A stretch of DNA of 64,000 nt, taken from contig OY764159.1 in NCBI GenBank assembly GCA_963668175.1, positions 3,584,001-3,648,000 of the forward strand. The letters run 5' to 3'. This DNA is from Syntrophales bacterium. GTDB lineage: Bacteria; Desulfobacterota; Syntrophia; Syntrophales; PHBD01. The stretch's first letter is position 1; the number at the start of each line of letters is the position of its first letter. The translations under genes and the position numbers were made by a program. The notes under the pieces are model-generated. The model was not told the origin of the DNA and did not search any database. It worked only from the letters and a program-made list of their open reading frames with translations. Shown here in pieces: positions 1,980-18,360 of this stretch.

Positions 1980-2893
1980 TGTTTCTCCTTGGGCGGGGAG
2001 GAAACGATATCGCGCCAGTTTTTTTGCCCGTCCGCATCCACGTGCCTGGCCCGCCAGGTCGGTTTGAGACCCAGATAGTCCGCTACGGCGGCCTCGATCC
2101 TGTCGCCGGGCCGATTGGGGGCGTCATCCCACGCAACCCGGTGGTAGAGAAAATATTTCATGAACATGTGGGACATGTGCGTAAGCGGTATATAAGCCAT
2201 AAGGAGCGACGCCGATACGATGGCCATCGCGCCGGGCCGGGACGGAGCCGGGGTCCGGAAACGGCCCCCCGTCAGCAGGGCCAGGACATAATCCTTGGCG
2301 CCGTCCCAGAAAGGATCGACCATGAAAGTCGCCGCCAGGGCGGAAAGGAAAAACAGGAGGTTGAAAAGGAGATTGAAATAATCGGATACCGTCGCGTAGG
2401 CCCTGAGGTCCGGATCGGTCAGGCGCCTGTAGAGAAGGCCCAGCGTACCTAAAGTCCCCAGAATCACGCCGCTCCAGCCGACGGCGGCCACGAACGAGTC
2501 CGTAAGGCTGCGTAAGGCAGGCGCCTCCCAAACGGCAAGTCCGGCGCGCAGGAACATGAGTCCTAAAGCGGCCAACATAAGATACAATCCGAAGTGGAAA
2601 GGAAAAGAGACCCACCAGAGGCTTCTGTTGTTATGCCACAGTCCACGGATAAAGAGGATCTCCGGAACCATGAAACGGATCTCGTTGGTAAGCGATCGTT
2701 CCTGTTTCTTCGTCCACCAATCGTGTTCTTCCATGTAGGAGCCGCCATAGGCGGTTTTGGCGGCGGGTTCATGCTGGACGGGATAGAGTTCCCAGCGGAC
2801 ATGGACGGGAAGGGTCAGCTGCACGTAAATCCGGTAGCCGCATGCCAGCACAAAGACGGCCGCGCATAGATAGGACAAGAGGTAGAAGCCCAT
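1976..2893 (-). CDS. DsrM-like/NarI-family membrane b-type cytochrome (second DsrM paralog)
   Basis: About 5 hydrophobic helices; candidate heme-ligand His in FHFGLY and THMSHMF; translationally coupled to the dsrK-like gene. Confidence 0.8.
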   Translation of the reverse strand: MGFYLLSYLCAAVFVLACGYRIYVQLTLPVHVRWELYPVQHEPAAKTAYGGSYMEEHDWWTKKQERSLTNEIRFMVPEILFIRGLWHNNRSLWWVSFPFHFGLYLMLAALGLMFLRAGLAVWEAPALRSLTDSFVAAVGWSGVILGTLGTLGLLYRRLTDPDLRAYATVSDYFNLLFNLLFFLSALAATFMVDPFWDGAKDYVLALLTGGRFRTPAPSRPGAMAIVSASLLMAYIPLTHMSHMFMKYFLYHRVAWDDAPNRPGDRIEAAVADYLGLKPTWRARHVDADGQKNWRDIVSSPPKEKQ

Positions 2894-2994
2894 AAGTCTT
2901 TTCCCTGAGTTTCCCCTTCCTCAATGTGTCCCCGGGGCAGTTTCCGATGCGTCGTACGGTCGAGCCGGAAGATGCTCACCCGAAGAGGTTGCTT

Positions 2995-3315
2995 TCAGAC
3001 GCAGCCGGTCGGCTTCGAAAGCCCGGCCAGTTTGCAGGCTCCCTTGGCAGGCCCCGTGGGATACAGTTCGTATAGCCTCTTCATATCTATACCGTTATCC
3101 TTGCAGAGCTTACGAATCATGGGTGCAATACCGAACTGCTGGAAATAATTACGCAGATAGTTGATGATTTTCCAGTGCTCCTCCGTTAATGTCCCTTCGA
3201 TACCCTCTTCTTTGGCATAGGCCTGGGCGAATTCTTCGCTCCATTTATCCAATTCCTGAAGGAACCCGTCTTCATCCACTTCGTACGTCTTTCCTGCCAG
3301 TTCAATTTGCGGCAT
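2995..3315 (-). CDS. dsrC: DsrC sulfur carrier
   Basis: VDEDGFL, LTEEHW, and C-terminal GPAKGACKLAGLSKPTGCV with both conserved Cys; ATG at 3315 with AAGGAGG RBS. Confidence 0.97.
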   Translation of the reverse strand: MPQIELAGKTYEVDEDGFLQELDKWSEEFAQAYAKEEGIEGTLTEEHWKIINYLRNYFQQFGIAPMIRKLCKDNGIDMKRLYELYPTGPAKGACKLAGLSKPTGCV

Positions 3316-3356
3316 AACCAAAACCTCCTTTTGCAGTTATCATTCGATTGGATTTG

Positions 3357-4799
3357 TCATCCATTCGCCCGGCGTCCCTGTTCCGCCACCGACGCCGCCG
3401 GCTCGTTCTTATCGTTATGGCGGTACTGCCTGGCCTTTTCGATCAGAAGCTCCGCCCATTGAGGCGTTCCCAAAGCATGCAGATGCGTGAAGGACGCCAG
3501 TATATTCTTCCTGCAGAGGGCATCCCTGTTCTCTCCCATGCCGGTTCCTTTCAGAAGCCGGTAAGCCGTATGGACTTCCCCACGTTTGCAGGCAAGGATG
3601 CGCGAGTAATGGAACTCGTGCCCGGTCAACCGCATACCGACAGGGAAGAAGGGATTGATGCCCACGACGTCCGCAACCGTATACCCATGTCCCTGAGGCC
3701 TCTTTTCCATACCGAAGACCACGGGAAGCGCCCCGACCATAGGATAGCGTCTATCGCCGATGACCAGGCTTTCGCCCAGGTAAATGAAGCCGCCGCATTC
3801 GGCGTAAATCGGGAGCCCCCCTTCGGCGGCCTCCAGCAGAGAGCGGCGAAAGCTTTCGTTTGCCGAGAGCGCCTCCGCCTGAGTCTCCGGAAAGCCGCCG
3901 CCGATATAAAGGGCATCCAATCGCGGCAGGACCTTATCGTCTATGGCGCTGAGGTCCACGATTCTCGCGCCGCATTCCGCCAATGCCTCGATGTTTTCCC
4001 GGTAATAAAACTGAAATGCCCTGTCCCTGATGATGCCGACAGAGACCGGCTCTCCCGAAGCCCTGTTCCCCGGCTCCGCCTGAAGAGCAATATCGTCTTT
4101 CCAGGATGCTGCGCTCTGCGCAATCCGGATGAGGCCATCTATATCCAGTTCGCTTTCCGCCAGGAATACGGCCTGTCTGATAACATCGGCAACGTTGTCG
4201 TGTTCCTGCGGAGGAACCAACCCTAAGTGTCTTTCCAAAAAGGGAAAATCGGCTATCCTCGGTATGGCGCCAAAGACGGGAAGGCCGCAGCTTTCCCGCA
4301 CGGCCCTTGTGATAACGGACGAATGGCGGTTGCTACCCACCCGATTCAGGATGACGCCGCGGATATCGACTTCCGGATCGAGACACTGGCAGCCCCGGAC
4401 CATCGCGGCTGCCGTGCGGGTAACCTTATCGGAATCGACGACGAGAATGACGGGGGCCTTGATCATTTTTGCCAGTTCCGCTGTGCTGTATGCGCCGGCG
4501 GAGTTCACACCGTCGTACAGTCCCCGATTCCCTTCAACCACGCCCCAGGATCCGGCGGCGCGGCGGTAAAAGGAACGAACTACCTGCTCGGGCCCCATCA
4601 GGAAAGCGTCCAGATTATGACAGGGTTTCGACGCGGCCAGGGACAGCCAGGCCGCGTCGATGTAGTCCGGACCTTTCTTGAAAGGAACAATGTCGATTCC
4701 CCGTTTCCGCAGTGCGGCGACAACCGCCACCGAAATGGCGGTCTTGCCGGCGCCTCCGCGCAGGGAGGCAAAAACGAGTCTAGGGCAGTGCCGTTCCAT
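3357..4799 (-). CDS. dsrN: DsrN, siroheme amidase (CbiA/CobB-family a,c-diamide synthase)
   Basis: GGAGKT, FKKGPDYID, EGNRGLYDG, AECGG and GHEFHYS motifs; sits between dsrD and dsrC; start moved to ATG 4799 to avoid overlap with dsrD. Confidence 0.88.
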   Translation of the reverse strand: MERHCPRLVFASLRGGAGKTAISVAVVAALRKRGIDIVPFKKGPDYIDAAWLSLAASKPCHNLDAFLMGPEQVVRSFYRRAAGSWGVVEGNRGLYDGVNSAGAYSTAELAKMIKAPVILVVDSDKVTRTAAAMVRGCQCLDPEVDIRGVILNRVGSNRHSSVITRAVRESCGLPVFGAIPRIADFPFLERHLGLVPPQEHDNVADVIRQAVFLAESELDIDGLIRIAQSAASWKDDIALQAEPGNRASGEPVSVGIIRDRAFQFYYRENIEALAECGARIVDLSAIDDKVLPRLDALYIGGGFPETQAEALSANESFRRSLLEAAEGGLPIYAECGGFIYLGESLVIGDRRYPMVGALPVVFGMEKRPQGHGYTVADVVGINPFFPVGMRLTGHEFHYSRILACKRGEVHTAYRLLKGTGMGENRDALCRKNILASFTHLHALGTPQWAELLIEKARQYRHNDKNEPAASVAEQGRRANG

Positions 4800-4822
4800 G
4801 AGCGATATCCTTGCGCGGCAAA

Positions 4823-5050
4823 TCAGCACTCCTTGGGATAATGTTCGGCGAGCACGATATACGTAGTGCTTCCGCTCGACCAATACTTCAGGACATCATC
4901 CGTGATGAGTTCCTTAACGACATTCTGAATGGCATGTCGGTCTTCATCGGGCAGCCATTTGACGACGTCCCTGATATAGAACATCTTCTTGTCTCCCTTC
5001 GATTTCTGGCGGAATGCATCCAATACCTTCGCCTTCAGAACATCATCCAT
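4823..5050 (-). CDS. dsrD: DsrD
   Basis: 75 aa directly after dsrB, with YWSSGSTTY motif and GGAGG RBS. Confidence 0.92.
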   Translation of the reverse strand: MDDVLKAKVLDAFRQKSKGDKKMFYIRDVVKWLPDEDRHAIQNVVKELITDDVLKYWSSGSTTYIVLAEHYPKEC

Positions 5051-5056
5051 GATGGT

Positions 5057-6115
5057 TTACCTCCATTTGAATTGTGTCGACGACCGGAATGTTTCCGTCG
5101 CCAGGTCGAAATCGTCGATATGCTTATCCGTAAAAGGAATTCCCGTCAGGCTGAAGAATCGCTCCCAACCGATCCGTTCGATCCATTCGCCGACCCGTTC
5201 ATACTTGCGGGCGTTGCTCGCGTAGACCTCGATGATATTCTTGACCGCGTCCACCACTTCCGGCCAGCGCGGCGGGTTGTTGGGCAGGAAGGGAATCGCC
5301 AGCTTGGAGAACATCGGTCTGGTTCGTGTATTGGAGACTTTCCCCCCGACCCAGATGGAAATACCGTCGTTATCGGGATCGGCAATCGGCATGGCGGGAC
5401 AGACGGTATAGCAGTTGCCGCAGTACATGCATTTTTCGCTGTTGACGGTGACGGTTTTGTTCTTCATATCGCCTCGGATAGCGCCGGTTGGGCACGACGC
5501 CACCGTCGTCGGGATTTCGCAGAGGTTCGGCAAGCGCGCATTGTCGGTCTTGGGGACCGTACGATGGATACCCAGAATGGCGATGTCGGAGCAATGCACG
5601 GCGCCGCACATGTTGAGACAGCAGGCCAGGGCGATCCGCAGATGGGCGGGAAGCTTCATCGACGTAAAATACTCATGAATCTCATCCATCAGCGCCTTGA
5701 CCGGACCGGACGCATCCGTCGCCGGCGTGTGGCAGTGGACCCATCCCTGGGTGTGGACGATATTGGAGATGGAACGCCCGGTACCGCCGACGGGATATTT
5801 CCGTTTTGCCAGTTCGTCAAGCAGGGGAGAAACCTTTTCCCGATCGGCAAGAAGAAACTCGATGTTGTTGCGGCTGGTGAAGCGAAGATAGCCGTCGCAA
5901 TATTTATCCGCAATATCGCAAATTTCACGGATGTGATCTATCGAAAGCAGACGAGGCGAAGCGGCGCGCACCGTGTAGAGCGCCTCGCCAGTCTCCCCGA
6001 CATGTTTGAGCACTCCCGGCTGGAGATACTCGTGATACTGCCATTTTCCATAGTTTCGTTGGATGACGGGAGGAAGCATGGTCTTGTAATCCGGGGGGCC
6101 GATATCGGTTGCCAT
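5057..6115 (-). CDS. dsrB: Dissimilatory sulfite reductase beta subunit
   Basis: [60 protein letters not shown]. Confidence 0.98.
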
Positions 6116-9285: not shown

Positions 9286-10653
9286 ATGACCGCCCAAGAC
9301 GTCCTTCGGAAAGTGACAAAGCAGGCTGTAAGGCCTTGCGCGCTCCTCTGGGACGAATCCCTGGTCTGGGGCTTAATGGCACAGCGAGCCTTGACGGACG
9401 CCGGACTTCCCTTCGACATCGTCACCGCGGCGGATATACGCCGGGGAAAACTCAAACGTTACCGCATGATCTTTATCCCGGGCGGATGGGCATCCGACAA
9501 GCTGGAAGCACTGGGAAAAGAAGGCCGCGAAAATATCCGGCAGTTTGTCGAAAATGGCGGAAGCTATTTCGGAATATGCGGAGGCGCCGGGATGGCCACG
9601 GAAGAAGGGCTCGGACTTCTGCCGGTTGTCCGCAAGCCGATGGCGGAAAGGGTCCCCAGCTTCAGCGGCGGCATTCGCCTTACCTGTGAGGAACATGCCA
9701 TCTGGAACGGCATCGACACGCCTGACTTTCATGCCTGGTGGCCGTCACAGCTGCAAGTTGCAGCCGGGGATGCAGACGTTCTCGCCGTGTACGAAAGTCC
9801 CCTGAATGATGCTTTCACTTCCGATATAGCGCTTGAATATGGCAAAGCAATCGGGTGGTCAGAGATGGAGCATAGTTACGGCATCCTTCTGGATCCCGCC
9901 CGCCTCCGGGGGGAACCGGCGGTGGTTGCGGGATGTTACGGCCTTGGCAAGGTCATCCTTTCCCTGATCCATTTCGACACGCCGGGCGATCGCAACGGCG
10001 CCATCGCCTTGAGAAACATATGGCATCTCTTGTCCTCATACGTTCCGTCGCATCATCAGGAAAACAGCGAACGGCCGACAAGCGAACCGACCACGAAGCT
10101 GTCACCGGAGTTATTTCAAACGACCGAGGAAATAAGAGAGACGGTAGAGGGGTTTGTGGAGTTCGGCGTTAGAAATTTCCTCTGGCACCGGCGGAATCCG
10201 CTGCTGCTCCAATGGCGGCGCGGCGTCAGGGGCATGGAATACTCGACCTTGATGGCAATGACAAGAGAGATTCTGGCATATGCCGCCATGCCGCATCATG
10301 ATCGTGAGCGGGTATCGAACAGGCAGCCGGGCTGCATGACGGAGACACAACTGAGAGATGCTCTCGCAGACATCAAGAAAAAACTGATCCCTTTTATCGA
10401 AAAGGCCGAGAAGCTCCTCGTCCGAGAACGGCTCTACATGCAATCCTCTTGCCTGTCGCCTTTGAACAGCGGGGACGAGGAGATCAACCGCCTCAGAAAG
10501 GAACTTTTCGCATCGGCGATGAGTCACGGAGGCGAGTTCAAATGCCTTATCGATGCGGTTGACCGCCTGCTCCTGAGACTGATGAAAGAAACCGGCACCA
10601 TTCAGCACCTGCCCGCCGGGAAGCCGCCTGACTTACCTGCCGCTGAATCTTGA
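9286..10653 (+). CDS. BPL-N-domain (class I glutamine amidotransferase-like) protein without a ligase domain
   Basis: IFIPGG and GGSYFGICGGA nucleophile-elbow motif; GGAG RBS. Confidence 0.65.
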   Translation: MTAQDVLRKVTKQAVRPCALLWDESLVWGLMAQRALTDAGLPFDIVTAADIRRGKLKRYRMIFIPGGWASDKLEALGKEGRENIRQFVENGGSYFGICGGAGMATEEGLGLLPVVRKPMAERVPSFSGGIRLTCEEHAIWNGIDTPDFHAWWPSQLQVAAGDADVLAVYESPLNDAFTSDIALEYGKAIGWSEMEHSYGILLDPARLRGEPAVVAGCYGLGKVILSLIHFDTPGDRNGAIALRNIWHLLSSYVPSHHQENSERPTSEPTTKLSPELFQTTEEIRETVEGFVEFGVRNFLWHRRNPLLLQWRRGVRGMEYSTLMAMTREILAYAAMPHHDRERVSNRQPGCMTETQLRDALADIKKKLIPFIEKAEKLLVRERLYMQSSCLSPLNSGDEEINRLRKELFASAMSHGGEFKCLIDAVDRLLLRLMKETGTIQHLPAGKPPDLPAAES

Positions 10654-10674
10654 GGACTGCTGCGGCTGCGGTCT

Positions 10675-10881
10675 TCACGGCCCCTTTGGGCCATCCGTCC
10701 TGTTCTTTCGCCGCCGGGGCGTCCGGATCGCGAGGGAGCGGAACGCGTCGCGGCTGTCCGTTTCCTTGATGCGTTTCATCATGTCGTCAATTTCTTCCTC
10801 ATCGATACTGCCGCGCTCTTCCATAAAATACCATACGGCGCTGCGGCCCGAATGCTTGCCCAGGACGATCCGGCCCGATCT
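10675..10881 (-). pseudogene. Fragment of a LeuA/homocitrate synthase-family gene (post-catalytic region)
   Basis: The frame reads *RSGRIVLGKHSGRSAVWYFMEERGSIDEEEIDDMMKRIKE...; RIVLGKHSGR is the LeuA/NifV motif; in-frame TAA at 10882-10884 just upstream and no start codon before the motif. Confidence 0.55.
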
Positions 10882-11352
10882 TTATCGGGACGCAAATGAA
10901 AGCGATGTCCCGTTTGTCCAACAGCCGACAAATACCCTCCGGGTCCGGAAACCACGGACAGTCGACAATGCGGGAAGCAATAACAGGTATGCCCGTGCCG
11001 ATCGCTTTGCCCGCAATACCTCACCCATGCGGGAACGGCCCTTGCCATGTTCCTCAGACAGGAGGACTCCTCAATGATACATATTCTTCAAAAAGGAAAA
11101 TCGCGGGATGCTCCGTATCCTATATTGATTGACGCGGAGGAAAATAAGACGCTTTTATGGATGAGTTCGACATTTCTCACGCATGGTCGATTGCGCCCGA
11201 CTCTCTTTAGTCCGGCTGCTTGAGACATGAAGGATATTTCAAGGGTATTTAAAAACGACAGGACTTGCGGCACCAAAAGCGGTATATTACTTTTATTGCG
11301 GGGGCATGGGTCGGCTCGCGACGGCCCCGAAAAACGATTGTACGTGGTGCAG

Positions 11353-12726
11353 ATGGCGGCTTTCAACGAACAACGCATCGATGTGACGCAAGGGAATATC
11401 TGGACCGGCATCTGGAGACTCTCCTGGCCGATGCTGGTCATCATGATCTTCAGTTTCCTCGTCGGCTTTACCGACGTCTACGTCGCCGGGTTCTTGGGTC
11501 CCGACGTCCAGGCGGCCGTCGGTTTCGCCACGCAGATATTCTTCCTCGTCGTCATCATTGCCAATGCCATCGCCATCGGCACGCTTGCATTGATATCGCG
11601 CGCCATCGGCGCCGGGGACGGGGAACGGGCGGTCGCCGTCGCCAAACAGTCCCTCATCCTCAGTTTCCTGATCGCCGTCGCCATCACGGCCGTCTGTCTC
11701 CTATTTTACCGCAGCATCATTGCCGTTGCGGGTTTCCCGGAGCCCATCAGGATCATCGCCGAAACATTCATCAGAATTTTTGCCTTCGCCCTGGGAGCCC
11801 ATTACATTCTCATCGTCTCCAACGCCGTCTTCCGCGCCAGCGGCGAAGTGAACAAGCCGCTCGTCACGATGATCATCATCTGCATCGTCAACATCGTCCT
11901 CGACTTCTGCCTCGTCTTCGGCATCGGCCCCTTTCCCAGACTAGGCTATGCCGGGATCGCTTTTTCAACCGCCATCGCCACCATCTCTGGAACCTCCGTC
12001 AACCTTCTTTTTCTTGCCAAAAGTCCGCGTTGGCGGGCCGTCTACGGCAGGCCGTTCGCCCTGTCACTGGAGACCGTCAAGACGATCCTCGGCATCGGAT
12101 GGCCTGCAGCCTTTCTGCAGATCGCCTGGAACCTGACCAGCATCGCCCTCTACAATATCCTGGGGAGACTTCACGAATCGAGCATCGTCGCCCTCGCGTC
12201 CCTCACGAACGGCCTGAGAATCGAAGCGATTATCTATCTTCCCGCTTTCGCCCTCAATATGGCCGCATCGGTCGTTACGGGCCAGAATCTCGGCGCAGAA
12301 GATCCTGACCGCGCTGAAAGGATGTGCTGGAAAATAGCCCTGGCGGGTGTCGGGATCAGCGGCGCTATGGCCCTGGTGATCTTTGTCCGGGCGGAGCAAT
12401 GCGCCGCCGTCTTGACTGCAGACCCGGCCGTCATCGCGGAAACGGCGAGGTACCTCAGGTACAATATGATCGCCGAACCCTTCCTCGCTTTGAGCACGGT
12501 CATGGGAGGGGGCCTGCAGGGGGCCGGCGACACCCGGGGGACCATGTGGGTGATCGTCGTCTCCATGTGGCTGGTCCGGCTTCCGCTCGCATCGTTTCTT
12601 GCGATTGTGATGGGATGGGGAGCACCGGGCGTATGGACCGCCATGCTCGTTTCCATGATCTGCCAGAGCATCATGATGGCCTGGTGGTTCAGGCTGGGGC
12701 GATGGAAAAAGTTAAAATTGCATTAA
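11353..12726 (+). CDS. MATE family efflux transporter
   Basis: About 12 TM with two-repeat MATE motifs (LSWP, TDVYVAGFLG, FRASG, NIVLD, GQNLGA, GAGDT); start assigned to ATG 11353. Confidence 0.93.
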   Translation: MAAFNEQRIDVTQGNIWTGIWRLSWPMLVIMIFSFLVGFTDVYVAGFLGPDVQAAVGFATQIFFLVVIIANAIAIGTLALISRAIGAGDGERAVAVAKQSLILSFLIAVAITAVCLLFYRSIIAVAGFPEPIRIIAETFIRIFAFALGAHYILIVSNAVFRASGEVNKPLVTMIIICIVNIVLDFCLVFGIGPFPRLGYAGIAFSTAIATISGTSVNLLFLAKSPRWRAVYGRPFALSLETVKTILGIGWPAAFLQIAWNLTSIALYNILGRLHESSIVALASLTNGLRIEAIIYLPAFALNMAASVVTGQNLGAEDPDRAERMCWKIALAGVGISGAMALVIFVRAEQCAAVLTADPAVIAETARYLRYNMIAEPFLALSTVMGGGLQGAGDTRGTMWVIVVSMWLVRLPLASFLAIVMGWGAPGVWTAMLVSMICQSIMMAWWFRLGRWKKLKLH

Positions 12727-12786
12727 GGACGCGGAAGGGATTATTCTTTCTTGAGAGATTCCAAGGCGGGAAGAGAGGAGGACTCC

Positions 12787-14004
12787 ATGCTGACACTGTT
12801 CAATTCCCTTGGTAAAAAGATGGAAGTATTTACGCCCGTCAACGCCGGTGTCGTGAATATCTTTACTTGCGGCCCTTCGGTTTACCAGCGGGCCCACATC
12901 GGCAACCATCGCACCTTTCTCTTCGAGGACATCCTGGTCCGATACCTGGAATACTCGGGATACAAGGTCCGCCGGGGCATGAATTTCACGGACATTGAGG
13001 ACAAGGCCCTGATCGAGGCCCATAAGAGAAAGATGCCTCTTGCCGCCCTGACTTCAGCGAACATTGAAACCTTCCTGGGCGAGATGAAGGCGCTCAGGAT
13101 GAAGGTGCCCGATTATCTGCCCCGCGCCTCGGAGCATGTGGACGAGGCCCTCCGGATCATCGACCGGCTCATCGAAAAGGGCGTCGCCTACCGCCACGGC
13201 GGCAACGTCTATTTCGATCCGCTGAAATTCCCCGGTTTCGGGAAGATCTACGGCCTCGACATGACGACATGGCCTGCCAGGAGGGTCCGATTCCACCGGG
13301 ATACATACAACGGGCTCCGCTGGAACCGGGGCGATTTCATCCTCTGGCACGGCTGCGGGACCGCGGACCGCGTCTGCTGGGATTCGTCCGTCGGCAGCGG
13401 CTGGCCCGCCTGGAATATCCAGGACCCGAGCATGGTCGGCCACTATTTCGACGAGACGTTGTCCGTCTATTGCGGCGGCATCGACAATCTCATCCGCCAT
13501 CACGATTACTCCGCCGCCGTGCTCGAATCGATCCGGCCCTATCCGATGGCGAAGTTCTGGCTTCACGGCCAGCATCTCTTCGTCAACGGCAGGAAAATGT
13601 CCAAGAGTACCGGCAATCTCCTCTACACGGACGAACTCGAAAAGCAGGGATATAACATGGAGGAAATCCGCTTCTTCCTCGTCTACGGCCATTATCGGAA
13701 TCGTATGAATTATCGGGATCGGACTATGGAAGAAAGGGCGAATCTTCTGAGGAACATCAAGAAACGGATTGGAGCGATAGGCGCGGTGGCCGGCGGCAAG
13801 GCGGAAACGCAGGGGGATGCAGGCCTCAAGTTGAAAGAGATTTTCAGGATACGCATGGACGACGACCTCGATGTGAAGGGAGCCGTCGACGGCATCGGCG
13901 ACATTCTGATGAAAACGTATCCCGATCGGCTTAAGGCAGGTGAAGCGACATCCCTTATGGAGGCCGTCAAGGAAATCGACGGCGTCCTGCAGGTTCTGCT
14001 TTAA
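12787..14004 (+). CDS. Cysteinyl-tRNA synthetase-like protein (degenerate, truncated paralog)
   Basis: TCGPSVY, HIGN, NFTDIEDK and KMSKSTGN present; WHIECSAM is replaced by WNIQDPSM and FPHHENE by IRHHDYS; the protein ends after the DALR-like helices; GAGGAGG RBS. Confidence 0.85.
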   Translation: MLTLFNSLGKKMEVFTPVNAGVVNIFTCGPSVYQRAHIGNHRTFLFEDILVRYLEYSGYKVRRGMNFTDIEDKALIEAHKRKMPLAALTSANIETFLGEMKALRMKVPDYLPRASEHVDEALRIIDRLIEKGVAYRHGGNVYFDPLKFPGFGKIYGLDMTTWPARRVRFHRDTYNGLRWNRGDFILWHGCGTADRVCWDSSVGSGWPAWNIQDPSMVGHYFDETLSVYCGGIDNLIRHHDYSAAVLESIRPYPMAKFWLHGQHLFVNGRKMSKSTGNLLYTDELEKQGYNMEEIRFFLVYGHYRNRMNYRDRTMEERANLLRNIKKRIGAIGAVAGGKAETQGDAGLKLKEIFRIRMDDDLDVKGAVDGIGDILMKTYPDRLKAGEATSLMEAVKEIDGVLQVLL

Positions 14005-14099
14005 GGAACGTTTTACGGATCGGCCGATGCGACGGCACTGCTGCAATAATATCTACCGGGGTCGATACGGAACGGAATGTAAAGGACGGGGGCCTATCG

Positions 14100-15128
14100 T
14101 CATGGGCCCGACGAGGGGGCTCGCTCATCGATCTTGACTTCGGGCGGCTTGGGCCTGTTTTTTCTCTGATTCACCAGGTTCTGCCTGTACTGAACGTAGG
14201 CATCGCGGACCGCTACATAGGGGTCGATGGCGGCCTGTTTGAGAGATTCATAGTCTCCCAGCGTGAGGGAGACATCGTTCAGCTTCTGATAGCTCCTGAC
14301 GGGCAGCCAGAAATACCACGGTTCAAGATATGAAACGGGATAGAGGAAATACTCCCCTACAAAACCCACCGAATCGCGCGGACTGGAGGGCCCGAGCACC
14401 GGCCACATGATGAAGAACCCATGTCCGATCCCGTAAACGCCCAAGGTCTGCCCGAAATCGACATCCTGCTTTTTGAGATTGATTTCCGGCAAGGAGGCGG
14501 GATCGAAAAAGCCTCCGATCCCCATCGTTGTATTGACAACGAACCGCCCTAATTCCGTCCCCGTGCATTTAAGGTCCGCCTGCAGGAGGCAGTTGGCAAA
14601 GCGGATCGGAAAGTAGAGGTTGGAAAAGAAATTCTGGATGCTGACCCTGAAGCCTTCGGGAGCAATTATATTGTACCCTTGGGCCACGGGCTTCATCACC
14701 CAAAAGTAGAGTCTATCATTGAAAGTGAACATGGCCCGGTTGAAGGATTCGATGGGATCGGAAACCGGTGCAGCCAATGCATTCTCATCCTGCACGTCTT
14801 TCTTCGCCGGGACGTCCTGGGCGGCTGGGCCGACGTCGTCTTCCTCTTTATAATCGCTTAAGTCCTGTTTTTCCTCCCGGCCAGACTTCTGGGCGGTCGA
14901 GGAAGCTTCTTTTACACCGACGGCTTCGCCCTTGGGGTTCACCGCCGTGCCGGACGGGTCTGGCGTAAGCGTTTCCTGCTTTGCAATAACCGGCGCCGGC
15001 TGGGCAGGGGACGGCTGCGGAAGAGGCGTACGGTTAGGGTCATGGGCGCATCCCGTGGCGAGAATAAACGGCAGAAGCATCATTCCGAGTAAACGTTTCA
15101 CCAAGGGGATGTCCATATCAGTCTTCAC
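14100..15128 (-). CDS. mlaA: MlaA/VacJ lipoprotein
   Basis: Lipobox ATGC; DPIESFNRAMFTFND, RFVVNTTMGIGG, DFGQTLG, PVLGPSSPRD, DPYVAVRDAY. Confidence 0.93.
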   Translation of the reverse strand: MKTDMDIPLVKRLLGMMLLPFILATGCAHDPNRTPLPQPSPAQPAPVIAKQETLTPDPSGTAVNPKGEAVGVKEASSTAQKSGREEKQDLSDYKEEDDVGPAAQDVPAKKDVQDENALAAPVSDPIESFNRAMFTFNDRLYFWVMKPVAQGYNIIAPEGFRVSIQNFFSNLYFPIRFANCLLQADLKCTGTELGRFVVNTTMGIGGFFDPASLPEINLKKQDVDFGQTLGVYGIGHGFFIMWPVLGPSSPRDSVGFVGEYFLYPVSYLEPWYFWLPVRSYQKLNDVSLTLGDYESLKQAAIDPYVAVRDAYVQYRQNLVNQRKNRPKPPEVKIDERAPSSGP

Positions 15129-15149
15129 TTCCGTGAAACATCGTCCACG

Positions 15150-15749
15150 TCAATCCTTTTGCGATTTAACTTTATCGCGTAGGATCTGAAGCAGTTGATC
15201 GGGTGAATTTTTTGCCAGGATGTCGTTGAACTGGGTTCGGTAGTTCATGACCAGGCTGATGTTCTCAACGACCACGTCGTACACCTTCCAGGTGCCGTTT
15301 GCAAGAATCATCCGATAGTAAATAGGGACCTCCTTCGAAGCGGTGACAATCTTGGTCTGGACCTCGACCTGGTTGCCGGAGAGAGGCAACTCTTTCGTGA
15401 ATACGACTTTCTCGTTGCTGTACGAGAGGATTCTGTCGGCATAAGCCTTTTCCAGGATCTGGTGGAAGAGATGAACGAATTCCTTCCTCTGGGATTCGTT
15501 AAGCCTGTTCCAGTTCTTCGCCAGAGTCCGCTTGGCGAGTTCGACTTCATCGAACATGGCATTGTATATGACCGTCAGTTTCTGTATTTTCTGTTCCTTC
15601 GCCGAAGCCGCCTTGAGCTTCGGATCGCGGAGCACTTCAAATACTTTATTGACGTTGACCTGAACGGTATCCAGCGGCACGCCGCCATATACCGGCAACG
15701 ACGCTAAAAAGACGACGATAACGATCAATCCTGCAACCCGCGTTTTCAT
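15150..15749 (-). CDS. mlaC: MlaC/Ttg2D periplasmic phospholipid carrier
   Basis: Signal peptide; WKVYDVVVENISLVMNYRTQF. Confidence 0.93.
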   Translation of the reverse strand: MKTRVAGLIVIVVFLASLPVYGGVPLDTVQVNVNKVFEVLRDPKLKAASAKEQKIQKLTVIYNAMFDEVELAKRTLAKNWNRLNESQRKEFVHLFHQILEKAYADRILSYSNEKVVFTKELPLSGNQVEVQTKIVTASKEVPIYYRMILANGTWKVYDVVVENISLVMNYRTQFNDILAKNSPDQLLQILRDKVKSQKD

Positions 15750-15777
15750 GAATGACCCCCTTTTTGCAATTCCTTGA

Positions 15778-16239
15778 CTATTGCTGCTGCTTCTTCACGT
15801 CCCCAAAGGCATACTTGGCTATAAGATCCGAGATATTCACGGCCGGCTGCGTTTCGGTGATGGTATCTCCCGGTTTGAGGAGGTTGCCCGCCCCTCCGGG
15901 TTCGATGCTGAGGTACATGTCGCCGATCAGCCCTTCCGTCTTGATGGAGGCAATAGCATCGTCATAGATATTGATGCCCTTCTTAATCCTCATTTCAACT
16001 ACGGCCGTCTGGGTTTTTTGGTCCATACTGAGGTTTTCCACCCGCCCGACCTCTATTCCCGCAATATAAACAATGCCTCCGACCCGTAAGCCCGTTACCG
16101 ACGTGAAACGGCCGAACAGCGAATAGGAATTGTCGCCCAGAAAATTGAAATGGCCGAGCTTGACCGTCATGTAGCCTATGCAAAGCAGACCGATCACCAG
16201 AAAGATACCCACTGTCGTTTCCATACTGTATTTCTTCAT
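15778..16239 (-). CDS. mlaD: MlaD MCE-domain protein
   Basis: ETTVGIF TM segment, GLRVGGIVYIAGIEVGRV, SIKTEGLIGDMYLSIEPGG. Confidence 0.93.
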   Translation of the reverse strand: MKKYSMETTVGIFLVIGLLCIGYMTVKLGHFNFLGDNSYSLFGRFTSVTGLRVGGIVYIAGIEVGRVENLSMDQKTQTAVVEMRIKKGINIYDDAIASIKTEGLIGDMYLSIEPGGAGNLLKPGDTITETQPAVNISDLIAKYAFGDVKKQQQ

Positions 16240-16243
16240 TTGC

Positions 16244-17503
16244 TCACACCTCCGCGGCACATCTGAGCCTGCCGATCTCTTTCTGTTTCATTCTCGCCAA
16301 TTCGATAACAGCCTCTAACTCCTCGATGGGCCTGCCCTCCGCCAGTCCGGCGCGAACGATCAAGTCAACGCATTCACCCGCATTCAAATGGTTATGGGCG
16401 CCATCCATGATTTTGCGAATGCCCTGATCCTGCAAATCGGCGATAAAATCCTTCAGGATGTCCTCGGCCTCCGCAAGATTGGAGTAAGGCAGAATTGTCA
16501 CGAATTCATTGAGGCTGCTGCGTGTCGAAAAGCCGCCGATGGCGCCGAAATGCTTGTTGATATACTCGCCCATGGCGAACAACGTCTCCTGGGCGACATC
16601 GTGGCCGAGGACGGTGACGACGGCATCGAGGGCGATCAGCGTGAAAACGACGATCGCGTAAGTCTCCTCGCGGGCGCCATGCTGCTTTAAAAGATGATAG
16701 TATTGGGCATTGAACTGATGCTTCGAGTAAAGCCCCGTCAGTTCCTTCTGCAATCCTTCCAGGCTCTTGATCACTTCGTCTTTGAAGGGATGGTCGAAGT
16801 ATTCCAGTTCTTCGGGCGTGCCCTGAAAAACGATGGAACGGTCGTAAAGGGCGAGAATACGATTGGAAATGAAGTAGACATCCGGAATCTCGTGGCTGAC
16901 GACAACGGCCGTGAAGCCGAATTTCCTCTGATACTGGGCGATCATACCGAGAATGGCGTTTTTCCTGATAGGGTCCTGTCCGGACGTGGGCTCGTCGAAA
17001 AGAACGATCTGCGGCTCGGTCACCAGCGCCCTCGCCAGGGCCACCCGCTTCTGCATGCCTCCGGACAGTTCGGAAGGATATCTATAAGCAGCATCCGTGA
17101 GTTCCACCTGCTCCATCCTGGCCGCAACCATGCGTTCTATTTCACTTTTCTTCAGATTGGTTGTTTCTCTGAGCGGCAAGGCAATGTTGTCGACAACGCT
17201 CATGGAATCGAACAGGGCGTTGTCCTGGAACATATAACTCATTTTTGCCAGAAAAGCGGACCTCTCATTTTTTTTCATATCGGCGATGGGCCTTCCCCGG
17301 AAGAGAATTGTCCCCTCGTCGGGTTTCAAAAGCCCGATAATATGTTTTAAAAGGACGCTCTTGCCGCCGCCGGACAGGCCGATGATCGTCGTGACCTGCC
17401 CTTCGAATATCTTGAGATTGACCTGATCGAGGACGGTCCGGTCTCCAAAGCGTTTGGTGACATTCTGGAATTCAATTAACGGCGTTTCCATGGGCTCCTT
17501 CAC
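16244..17503 (-). CDS. mlaF: MlaF ABC ATPase with a C-terminal degenerate GGDEF-like domain
   Basis: Walker A GLSGGGKS, FQDNALFDS, LSGGMQKRVALARA, FDEPT; plus about 165 extra C-terminal residues. Confidence 0.88.
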   Translation of the reverse strand: MKEPMETPLIEFQNVTKRFGDRTVLDQVNLKIFEGQVTTIIGLSGGGKSVLLKHIIGLLKPDEGTILFRGRPIADMKKNERSAFLAKMSYMFQDNALFDSMSVVDNIALPLRETTNLKKSEIERMVAARMEQVELTDAAYRYPSELSGGMQKRVALARALVTEPQIVLFDEPTSGQDPIRKNAILGMIAQYQRKFGFTAVVVSHEIPDVYFISNRILALYDRSIVFQGTPEELEYFDHPFKDEVIKSLEGLQKELTGLYSKHQFNAQYYHLLKQHGAREETYAIVVFTLIALDAVVTVLGHDVAQETLFAMGEYINKHFGAIGGFSTRSSLNEFVTILPYSNLAEAEDILKDFIADLQDQGIRKIMDGAHNHLNAGECVDLIVRAGLAEGRPIEELEAVIELARMKQKEIGRLRCAAEV

Positions 17504-18360
17504 ATCAAGAACGACGTCACGACGTAGTCGGACACCAGGATAAGCACACAGGATACAACGACCGCCGACGTCGTGGCAAGACCGACCGCCTTGGCCCCGT
17601 GGCTGTCGGTCCTCATATGGGCGAAATACCCCTGGTAACAGCAGACGGTGGAAACGATGAAGGCAAAGACCACGGCCTTGATGAGGCCGTCCGTGACATC
17701 CTTCATGGCCATGCTGGCCTGGATACGGTAAAAATAGGTGCCGGCGTTGGCCCCAAGAATCAGGACTCCGGACAGATAGCCGCCGACAATACCGATGAGG
17801 TCGAAGATAGCCGTAAGCAGCGGAAAACTGATAACGGCCGCCGCTATCCTCGGGCTTACAAGAAACCGGAGGGGATCGATCCGCATGGTCTCCAGGGCGT
17901 CGATCTGCTCGGAGATTCTCTGGATGCCGATCTCGGCGCTGATGGCCGATCCGGCCCTGGCGGCGATCATGATGGCCGTAAGGACCGGTCCCAATTCCCG
18001 GACAAGAGAGAGGGAAACCAGTATCCCCAAAGCTCCCTGGGCGCCGACTTTGACCAGGGCATAGTAGGATTGAAGACCGAGGACCATGCCGGTGAACAGA
18101 CCGACGAGCATGATGATCATCATGGACCTCGCCCCGATGTGATAGATCTGCTGAAATATCTTGGACATCTGTTTCGGCCGGAAGATCTTCACGAGCGCCA
18201 GCACAAGAAAGATCGCCGAAGCGCCGAGATGATTGCTCCAGTTAATGGCGGTTCTGCCGAAGAACGCAAAAGGCTGAGACAATGCCACCGCAATGGATTT
18301 CCCTGCTGTGTCTTCGGCGCTATTCATGTCCGTATAGGAGGGGGTTGGAGAAGATCCCAT
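17500..18360 (-). CDS. mlaE: MlaE permease
   Basis: VRELGPVLTA, GSAISAEIG, EQIDALETM, VGLATTSAVV. Confidence 0.95.
   Translation of the reverse strand: MGSSPTPSYTDMNSAEDTAGKSIAVALSQPFAFFGRTAINWSNHLGASAIFLVLALVKIFRPKQMSKIFQQIYHIGARSMMIIMLVGLFTGMVLGLQSYYALVKVGAQGALGILVSLSLVRELGPVLTAIMIAARAGSAISAEIGIQRISEQIDALETMRIDPLRFLVSPRIAAAVISFPLLTAIFDLIGIVGGYLSGVLILGANAGTYFYRIQASMAMKDVTDGLIKAVVFAFIVSTVCCYQGYFAHMRTDSHGAKAVGLATTSAVVVSCVLILVSDYVVTSFLM

Follow-up and report, generated by a model that had tools for sequence, protein, structure and literature searches.

A widespread cysteinyl-tRNA synthetase paralogue with a rebuilt amino-acid pocket and no anticodon domain: a putative stress-linked adenylate-forming ligase

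Why would a bacterium that already encodes a full-length cysteinyl-tRNA synthetase (CysRS) carry a further, shortened copy in which the amino-acid site has been rebuilt? The question is raised by a gene at 12787-14004 on the plus strand of a 64,000-nucleotide (nt) stretch of a Syntrophales bacterium genome (GenBank assembly GCA_963668175.1, contig OY764159.1, positions 3,584,001 to 3,648,000), which we call the window. Positions are those of the window, and residue numbers are those of its 405-amino-acid (aa) CysRS-like protein unless E. coli is stated. The open reading frame (ORF) is intact, with its stop codon inside the range given. A preliminary description had seen in it an adenylating enzyme for something other than cysteine, not a translational synthetase, paired with a multidrug and toxic compound extrusion (MATE) exporter. 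The fold, the motifs, conservation across a whole family under purifying selection, a separate clade, a coexisting cysS and recurrent neighbours are all observed here. On these we build the reading that we consider probable, in which the protein is a stress-linked ligase that would form an aminoacyl-adenylate and pass the aminoacyl group to an acceptor other than tRNA-Cys; adenylation, retention of a metal, the amino acid, the acceptor and the tie to export and stress are the predicted parts of it.

The host genome, a single 4.57-Mb contig rated 100% complete, holds three CysRS-family genes. One is a canonical cysS, separate from the window gene, whose 489-aa product scores 555.3 bits against the CysRS profile TIGR00435 and has the motifs WHIEC, HGGG, FPHHENE and KMSKS. 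Another encodes an 812-aa fusion of cysteine synthase (PALP; CysK) to CysRS, in which the anticodon domain is present (401.3 bits). With these two coexisting in the genome, the window protein scores 286.5 bits, below the cut-off of 340. Judged by profile score and gene complement, the 405-aa paralogue is not the housekeeping, translational CysRS of this cell, in agreement with the preliminary description. A full-length cysS above the cut-off was present as well in all five other carrier genomes checked (two Bathyarchaeia, one Thermoplasmata, one Syntrophobacteraceae-type and one Syntrophales). The fusion gene, which lies outside the window at about 4,519,478-4,521,916 of the host contig (G000:C1; locus L002, 460-2898), is a second altered CysRS pocket within the host genome: its zinc region reads WHLEC ... 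FPHCENV, with Cys at the H235 position and Val at the E238 position. Similar PALP-CysRS fusions occur elsewhere (P0134, P0201), and at least one other Syntrophales genome (G005) has a second TIGR00435 match above the cut-off, at 389 bits.

What has been kept and what has been changed can be read from the DNA and from a HMMER alignment to E. coli CysRS (1li5), which fixes the residue equivalences; every element named here is on the plus strand. We prefer the ATG at 12787, preceded at a distance of 5 nt by a Shine-Dalgarno-like AGGAGG (12776-12781), to a TTG at 12751, because homologues begin at the same ML.L[FY]N motif, the common form of which is ML.L[FY]N[ST]. The ATP motifs stand at the positions described before: HIGN, the class I HIGH motif, at residues 37-40 (12895-12906), and the KMSKS loop at residues 270-274 (13594-13608). 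TCGP (T27-C28-G29-P30) is likewise intact, and its Cys28 (codon 12868-12870) aligns with E. coli C28. The second zinc cysteine had been reported as Asp, and so it is: Asp213, encoded by GAC at 13423-13425, occupies the place of E. coli C209 in WNIQD (residues 209-213; 13411-13425), where Trp209 (E. coli W205) is kept and H206 and E208 have given way to N210 and Q212. The canonical FPHHENE is IRHHDYS, again as described (residues 236-242; 13492-13512); His238 and His239 (E. coli H234 and H235) are kept, and P233, E236, N237 and E238 are replaced by R237, D240, Y241 and S242. At residues 227-231 (13465-13479), VYCGG replaces the canonical IHxGG, so that Y228 and C229 correspond to E. coli H224 and G225. 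A further change is an insertion, Trp162-Pro163 (13270-13275), in the connective peptide (CP) domain, with basic residues on either side.

To see how far these features extend, three sets of sequences were compared. The family set (n=199) comprises 120 close matches, 5 distant representatives and 74 ORFs from loci, which are not independent of one another. The canonical set (n=107) consists of the full-length CysRS-type representatives nearest the query together with host cysS and E. coli CysS. The third set concerns MshC, an amide ligase that needs no tRNA and in mycothiol synthesis joins cysteine to GlcN-Ins by way of cysteinyl-AMP; the set holds 119 MshC-like Chloroflexota proteins labelled MshC by JGI, with no actinobacterial MshC among them, and P0189, its sole member scanned on NCBIfam, scores 397 bits against the TIGR03447 cut-off of 485. 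In the family, H37, G39, N40 and K273 of the ATP motifs and C28, G29, T68, W209, H238 and H239 are each present in 199/199 and K270 in 197/199. The replacements are almost as strict: Q212, D213, D240 and Y241 are found in every member, R237 in 197 and N210 in 185, and position 242 is Thr in 98, Ser in 64 and Asn in 35. The inserted Trp162 (197/199) and Pro163 (199/199) fall on a gap in every canonical and MshC-like row of the alignment. Other residues peculiar to the family are S31 (Thr in canonical CysRS), R63, A74, F151, W179, H188 (canonical K185) and Y280, and 42 positions are conserved in both the family and canonical CysRS.

The canonical proteins present the opposite picture at the changed positions, with H206, E208 and E238 in 107/107 and C209 in 105/107. 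The three former residues are also kept in 118-119 of the 119 MshC-like proteins, and all three are changed in every one of the 199 family members. We take E. coli C28, C209, H234 and E238 to be the four zinc ligands, as in the 1LI5/1LI7 structures. On that assignment two of the four predicted ligands are kept (C28 and H234) and two are replaced (C209 by Asp, E238 by Ser), and members of the family are alike in this in 199 cases out of 199. An excerpt of PMC5660078 states that two conserved Cys of CysRS bind the active-site Zn. The earlier claim that MshC keeps its zinc ligands holds for our Chloroflexota stand-ins, which have C28, C209, H234 and E238 in 119/119. The change of DIHGGG to SVYCGG, also singled out before, was unusual only in part: the His is replaced in the family by Tyr (147), Phe (23) or Ala (20) and is otherwise near universal (106/107 canonical), but a Cys following the His of IHxGG is common, occurring in 19/107 ordinary CysRS.

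The rest of the protein is that of a CysRS cut short. Pfam tRNA-synt_1e (PF01406) matches residues 15-316 (E 1.8e-69), and a Pfam scan of the protein gave no match to the anticodon domain CysS_C (PF23493) and none to DALR_2 at E<=0.01. Since the TIGR00435 alignment places residues 2-404 on model positions 1-401 of 466, the protein ends ahead of the C-terminal domain, which bears out the description of a product of about 405 aa with no anticodon domain. An AlphaFold (AF2) model built on an 83-row alignment has a mean predicted local distance difference test (pLDDT) score of 94 and a predicted template modelling (pTM) score of 0.93; a single-sequence model (pLDDT 34) was discarded. The closest structures to the 83-row model are those of CysRS (template modelling (TM) score 0.85-0.89; 8qhp, 1u0b and 1li5 at 0.86-0.89), followed by MshC (0.82-0.84) and then MetRS (0.6-0.7). 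The CP domain and stem-contact fold are present in the model, and its C-terminal end is a four-helix bundle, the "DALR-like helices" of the preliminary description; the helical bundle with its MDDD motif is retained. Clusters in the ESM Atlas were labelled only as generic "class I tRNA ligase" and CysRS/MshC.

Relatives with the same signature are numerous. More than 120 cluster representatives, about 405 aa long and 59-74% identical, came out of a word-indexed search, and their names do not go beyond "cysteinyl-tRNA synthetase" or "class I tRNA ligase family protein". An exhaustive profile-free search found a few 50%-identity cluster representatives with this signature, at 39-47% identity to the query, ranking above ordinary CysRS. 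A scan of species genomes confirmed 143 loci, 80 of which were kept for locus analysis. Carriers are Syntrophales (Smithella, Syntrophus), Nitrospirota (among them Nitrospira japonica, Thermodesulfovibrionales and Dissulfurispiraceae), Syntrophobacteraceae, Desulfobacteraceae and, among archaea, Bathyarchaeia, Thermoplasmatota and a Methanocella, and identities within the family span 43-79% across the two domains of life. The distribution is patchy. Among 151 genomes of the host's own order, 117 of them high-quality, the gene occurs in 21 (14 of the high-quality ones), with a best match 68% identical to the window protein, and it is absent from all eight other genomes of the host's own family in that sample.

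The ratio of nonsynonymous to synonymous substitution rates (dN/dS), calculated pairwise for unsaturated pairs from three lineages, is 0.10-0.23 overall (L032/L033, 0.115-0.124; L029/L032, 0.10-0.11; L072/L085, 0.15-0.17; L056/L054, 0.14-0.23); for the window gene against L009, dN is 0.20 and dS is saturated. The preliminary description had asked whether the WNIQD/HHDY group is conserved under purifying selection or whether the substitutions belong to this copy alone, with dN/dS near 1. The former is what we find, the signature being shared by the 199 relatives. A decaying pseudogene is ruled out by the intact ORF, the family-wide signature and these ratios: the gene is an intact member of a widespread and constrained CysRS-derived family. 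No report of the family turned up in the literature searched (open-access PMC and bioRxiv full text); an excerpt of the review PMC9437257 names only MshC and CysRS* as CysRS paralogues, and the excerpted text of the review PMC11580382 names none.

Does the family descend from MshC, or did it leave CysRS on its own? In a tree of 79 rows, several of them long (IQ-TREE quick search, LG+C20 PMSF), 29 family rows and a degenerate relative, P0172, form a clade with full support (Shimodaira-Hasegawa-like approximate likelihood ratio test, SH-aLRT, 100) on a branch of length 0.68; the family rows alone have a support of 85. Eight MshC-like rows form a clade of their own (100) within HIGH-type bacterial CysRS, next to host cysS, on the opposite side of the tree from the family, and the CysK fusions fall among ordinary CysRS. 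The family is thus separate from canonical CysRS and from the Chloroflexota proxies of MshC, which argues that it is an independent derivative of CysRS and not a branch of MshC. Within it, one subclade unites Syntrophales and Nitrospirota, and a second mixes archaea with Syntrophobacteraceae and Desulfobacteraceae, a mixture that points to transfer between domains. Near the base of the family, with weak support (51), stands P0147, a 405-aa protein with an intermediate signature (WNVQC ... FNHHENT) that combines changes at H206, E208 and E238 with an unaltered Cys209, E236 and N237, a hint that there is a wider set of CysRS paralogues without anticodon domains.

What might such a site bind? G29 and T68 are residues that bind the amino-acid backbone, and since they are invariant together with the ATP site, adenylation of a small alpha-amino acid would be the economical reading. 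This part of the preliminary claim fits the sequence; the other part, that the amino acid is not cysteine, is less secure, for the protein retains Cys28, His238 and Trp209. An Asp in place of C209 is found also in 2/107 full-length CysRS-type proteins that score 458-487 bits against TIGR00435 (P0159 and P0267), one with a compensating N237C and the other without, so Asp213 by itself does not establish that cysteine specificity has been lost. The loss of E238, H206 and E208, universal elsewhere, is in our judgement the stronger signal of changed specificity. Zinc sites built of Cys, Asp and His can bind thiolates, as in farnesyltransferase. With E208 changed to Gln, E238 to Ser, Thr or Asn and P233 to Arg, the pocket would carry about three more positive charges and have one metal coordination position freed. 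Such a rebuilt site could still bind a thiolate, and a side chain with a carboxylate, sulfinate, sulfonate or phosphate group would suit it just as well.

We therefore favour a scheme in which the protein would bind ATP through its intact HIGN and KMSKS motifs and would hold a small alpha-amino acid by its backbone, with the conserved G29, T68 and W209. The side chain would be read by a site rebuilt from Cys2-His-Glu to Cys28-Asp213-His238, and the amino acid would be cysteine or a close, probably anionic, analogue. The aminoacyl group of the adenylate would then be passed to an acceptor other than the ordinary, anticodon-read tRNA-Cys, held by the remodelled and strongly basic CP domain. The setting would be one of stress, most likely oxidative, and in the host the MATE exporter, whose gene ends 60 nt ahead of the ligase, would probably move the substrate or product. 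As to the acceptor within this scheme, a small molecule, after the logic of MshC, is a real though tentative choice, and an RNA a more doubtful one. A narrower version is more speculative still and on balance improbable: the Cys/Asp/His site may select a cysteine-like amino acid that is anionic or oxidised, with cysteine sulfinate, cysteate, phosphoserine or a persulfide as candidates, and the enzyme would load it onto an acceptor that is itself anionic (the 3' end of an RNA, a carrier or a metabolite that bears phosphate). If that were true, the family would represent a new route for dealing with oxidative damage in anaerobes and Nitrospirota, linked to peroxiredoxin or superoxide dismutase and to export. 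The host genome has no match to GshA (PF04262, PF04107), GshB (PF02955) or BshC (PF10079), control genomes having matched as expected, and this leaves room for a cysteine conjugate of a new kind. Three generic PIG-L deacetylases in the host genome were set aside as linked enzymes, lying 0.6-0.7 Mb from the locus.

The tie to stress and export comes from the neighbouring genes. The MATE gene (11353-12726, plus strand; Pfam MatE 1.1e-47, TIGR00797 231 bits) ends 60 nt ahead of the ligase ATG on the same strand, as had been noted. Its ORF is open from 11227, and the start at 11353 was chosen on orthologues, which align from residue 1-2 of the 457-aa form. We scanned all ORFs of the 80 loci and the window (81 in total) with profiles from neighbour clusters; loci within one lineage are kin, so that the counts overstate independent events, which are few and not dozens. 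A MATE gene adjoins the ligase in 21/81 loci, upstream and on the same strand in Syntrophales and Nitrospirota with gaps of about 10-240 nt, and downstream in the single Thermoplasmatota locus among the 21; in the sample from the host's own order it lies directly upstream in 14 of 20 matches. Other loci have other partners. In Syntrophobacteraceae-type loci a CNNM/CorC transporter gene is directly upstream (17/81), itself preceded in the same gene string by a hibernation-factor/cold-shock fusion (17/81) and a hydrolase-OsmC fusion (16/81). In Bathyarchaeia and Methanocella loci a Bcp/PrxQ-type peroxiredoxin gene lies 8-36 nt upstream (15/81), and an Fe/Mn superoxide dismutase gene is found about 500 nt upstream in 4/81. 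An MFS exporter gene adjoins the ligase on its upstream side in one locus and is within 3 kb in two more, and one Syntrophus locus has a convergent peroxiredoxin gene 54 nt away. The pairing with MATE, conserved within Syntrophales and Nitrospirota, is thus not obligatory and has several alternatives. The common themes are a cation or organic-cation exporter and antioxidant or stress genes, and export of the ligase product by the MATE protein is plausible.

Some further details of the neighbourhood deserve mention. The archaeal peroxiredoxin was considered as a clue to a thiol cofactor and dropped as uninformative, being of the Bcp/PrxQ type with CxxxxC, for which a small thiol is unnecessary. 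In two genomes with the MATE orthologue and no ligase, a superoxide dismutase gene lies downstream of the MATE gene, immediately so in one of them and at a distance of about 2.7 kb in the other. The relative G012, complete as a single contig, has one frameshift in its MATE gene and one in its ligase gene (locus L110, G012:C1:1068000-1077000, at 2801-5455), and the flanking genes, including a dienelactone-hydrolase gene downstream, are whole; this could reflect joint decay of the pair or an assembly or sequencing error. A search for longer fused proteins, weak evidence in itself, returned none, and an apparent 1113-aa frame in G042 proved to be the upstream MATE gene read out of frame. Rfam gave no match at E<=1 across window positions 10000-14500; a promoter scan came near the shuffle expectation (3 vs 1.9), and promoter and terminator scans were not used.

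Four different contexts (L009, L096, L103, L106, L110; L029-L033; Bathyarchaeia; Syntrophobacteraceae) have a gene for an alpha/beta-hydrolase close to the ligase. It encodes a dienelactone hydrolase in Syntrophales, where it is the next gene downstream, and in Nitrospirota, at a distance of 1.4-2.9 kb; in Bathyarchaeia it is a small hydrolase two genes upstream, and in Syntrophobacteraceae the hydrolase-OsmC fusion. In the window itself, a 455-aa ORF (9286-10653, plus strand) matches BPL_N and GATase_3 weakly at its N-terminus, which suggests a fold like that of class I glutamine amidotransferases; it has no NCBIfam family and is not conserved beside the ligase in other loci. The roughly 700 nt between it and the MATE start (10654-11352) have no Rfam match and hold, on the minus strand, short out-of-frame protein-like pieces (...GIPVIASRIVD..., ...VLGKHSGRSAV...), probably decayed coding sequence. 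Convergent with the ligase, at 14100-18360 on the minus strand, is what looks like an Mla-like lipid-asymmetry gene string, with an MlaA lipoprotein (Pfam 2.5e-68) followed by four ORFs (199, 160, 419 and 286 aa) that resemble by eye, in turn, a periplasmic binder, a protein of MlaD type, an ABC ATPase much extended at its C-terminus and a permease of MlaE type.

Several observations weigh against a stress-linked ligase with a small-molecule acceptor and a dedicated exporter. At a threshold of E<=1e-150, the MATE orthologue and the ligase occur together in 15 of the 151 genomes of the host's order, but 10 genomes, six from a single genus, have the orthologue and no ligase, and 6 have the ligase and no orthologue, so that the link to the transporter is not obligatory. 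Conserved biosynthesis genes are often seen as neighbours in thiol pathways, unlike here: across the 80 loci and the window, the ligase has no conserved neighbour of the kind that would make an acceptor, such as a glycosyltransferase or deacetylase gene. Finally, the family is basic, with a median isoelectric point (pI) of 8.9 and a net charge of +7, compared with 6.0 and -8 for canonical CysRS and 5.1 and -22 for the MshC-like proteins. The excess is concentrated in residues 151-180 of the CP domain (mean charge +4.8 vs -0.7 in canonical CysRS) and in residues 301-330 (+4.1 vs +1.0). At five positions that are conserved in CysRS and lost in MshC-like proteins, the family keeps R42 (198/199) and K73 (199/199), changes K185 and N237 and is mixed at V32. 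Basic pI and the kept R42 and K73 would fit RNA or another anionic acceptor better than an amino-sugar of the MshC kind. An amide ligase like MshC, the comparison drawn in the preliminary description, is one option among others; the anticodon-less architecture is shared, the two groups do not form a clade, and one is basic where the other is very acidic.

The basic charge and the kept R42 and K73 also speak for the strongest rival, an RNA-directed enzyme that would dock on the acceptor arm of a tRNA, or on another RNA, through its CP and stem-contact regions. It would then charge a special tRNA with no reading of the anticodon, in the manner of CysRS*, or aminoacylate a modified nucleoside, in that of GluQRS/YadB. 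In CysRS (1U0B) the two regions that here have added charge face the acceptor stem and the inner elbow of the tRNA, and retention of the helical bundle with its MDDD motif also speaks for contact with RNA. Other CysRS-like proteins without anticodon domains that have a canonical pocket are basic too, with a pI above 9.3 in 7/9. There is a precedent as well: according to excerpts of Mukai et al. 2017 (PMC5389517), CysRS*, an enzyme without an anticodon domain and with a changed CP1 motif, serves a dedicated tRNA; in Desulfobacterales its gene comes right after selC* and selB*, and the genomes concerned have an opal-suppressor tRNA-Cys with A1:U72. No such partner was found here. Over the whole host genome ARAGORN reported one ordinary tRNA-Cys(GCA), with U73 and G1:C72, and one genuine tRNA-Sec, with G73; it found no extra selC*-like gene and no CysRS*-type tRNA-Cys (UCA anticodon, A1:U72), with the proviso that the program may miss odd tRNAs. 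An 83-nt tRNA-Val(CAC) call at genome positions 3,480,158-3,480,240 was rejected as a false positive, with weak stems and sequence that looks by eye like ABC-ATPase-coding DNA. ARAGORN gave no tRNA gene within the window and, in 100 related loci, just one, for an unrelated tRNA-Pro, at a distance of 5 kb from the ligase. Genes for RNA modification or for a SelB-like protein are not conserved nearby, the recurrent adjoining exporters fit a small molecule better, and pI is a crude proxy, since membrane association or an anionic small acceptor could explain it. We regard an RNA-directed enzyme as a serious but unlikely alternative to the stress-linked ligase.

A second, specialised but genuine Cys-tRNA synthetase, either a stress isoform or an enzyme of CysRS* type that reads cysteine with a Cys/Asp/His zinc site, would account for the retention of Cys28, His238, Trp209, T68 and all ATP motifs and for the natural occurrence of Asp209 in two full-length CysRS-type proteins. 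It would also agree with the report, in excerpts of PMC5389517, of selC* tRNA-Cys genes from Deltaproteobacteria and Nitrospirae, the same phyla as the family. We nevertheless find it improbable. E238, H206 and E208, universal in the canonical set, are changed throughout the family; the score lies under the cysS cut-off; the host already has two CysRS genes for its one tRNA-Cys; and selC* and selB* are missing from the vicinity in the 100 related loci.

Least probable of the alternatives we weighed, if by little, is a dedicated cysteine persulfide synthase, in which tRNA charging would have been lost and the pyridoxal phosphate (PLP)-dependent, CysSSH-forming side activity of CysRS kept or enhanced as an antioxidant supply of persulfide. 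Excerpts of PMC5660078 report that this activity is PLP-dependent, relies on Lys 73, 76, 266 and 269 and needs neither ATP nor tRNA, and that E. coli CysRS with zinc-site changes to Asp or Ser (C28D, C28S, C28/209D) keeps high persulfide production with strongly attenuated translation. The natural Asp at the C209 position recalls these mutants, three of the four lysines are kept in the family (K73 in 199/199, K266 in 197/199 and K269 in 199/199), and peroxiredoxin, superoxide dismutase and OsmC genes recur nearby. The equivalent of K76, however, is Lys in only 77/199 and Ile in the window protein. A strictly conserved HIGN and ATP site would go unexplained if ATP were unused and argues that it is still in use; the invariant new residues (N210, Q212, R237, D240, Y241) and the remodelled CP domain suggest a new substrate or acceptor; and the mechanism of the synthase is itself structurally undefined.

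How, then, does the family compare with known systems? Canonical CysRS (TIGR00435, PF01406; 1LI5/1LI7/1U0B, 8QHP) shares its fold over residues 1-405, its HIGH-type and KMSKS motifs and Cys28, His234/235, Trp205, Thr68 and Gly29 (E. coli numbering). The family differs from it by having no anticodon domain, by the replacements at C209 (Asp), E238 (Ser, Thr or Asn), H206 (Asn), E208 (Gln), P233 (Arg), E236 (Asp), N237 (Tyr) and H224 (Tyr), by the Trp-Pro insertion and extra positive charge of its CP domain, by its separate clade and by a score below the profile cut-off. MshC (TIGR03447; 3C8Z, 8HFM) is likewise derived from CysRS, about 410 aa long and free of an anticodon domain, and the window protein reaches only 159.1 bits against its profile, where the cut-off is 485.1. 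Unlike the family, the Chloroflexota proxies keep all four Zn ligands, H206 and E208, are acidic and have lost R42 and K73. No MshA/B/D-type neighbours were seen in the 80 loci and the window; MshA and MshD were not searched genome-wide. Archaea, which figure among the carriers of the family, have no MshC homologues according to section 14 of an archaeal-thiol review (PMC7278568), as excerpted.

CysRS* resembles the family in lacking the anticodon domain; as far as gene context goes, the family is set apart from it by the absence of selC* and selB* at the locus and its relatives. GluQRS (YadB), a truncated GluRS that glutamylates the queuosine of tRNA-Asp, offers an analogy only: it too, a paralogue of a class I synthetase, has no anticodon domain, activates an amino acid and puts it onto a non-canonical acceptor (it is mentioned in Table 1 of PMC9437257). 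Its parent synthetase is different, its homology to the family does not go beyond the class I core, and there is no sign here of a modified-nucleoside target. The family appears to be a further CysRS derivative of the repurposed-synthetase kind. Synthetase paralogues freed of tRNA reading have turned out to run unexpected chemistry, as MshC, GluQRS, CysRS* and the amino-acid:carrier-protein ligases illustrate. The carriers are syntrophs, sulfate reducers, nitrite oxidisers and Bathyarchaeia, organisms of environmental importance whose redox-buffering chemistry is largely unexplored. The substrate pair of the ligase could bring to light a metabolite or an RNA modification not described before and linked to oxidative stress, and the family is a natural experiment on how the zinc site of CysRS sets specificity.

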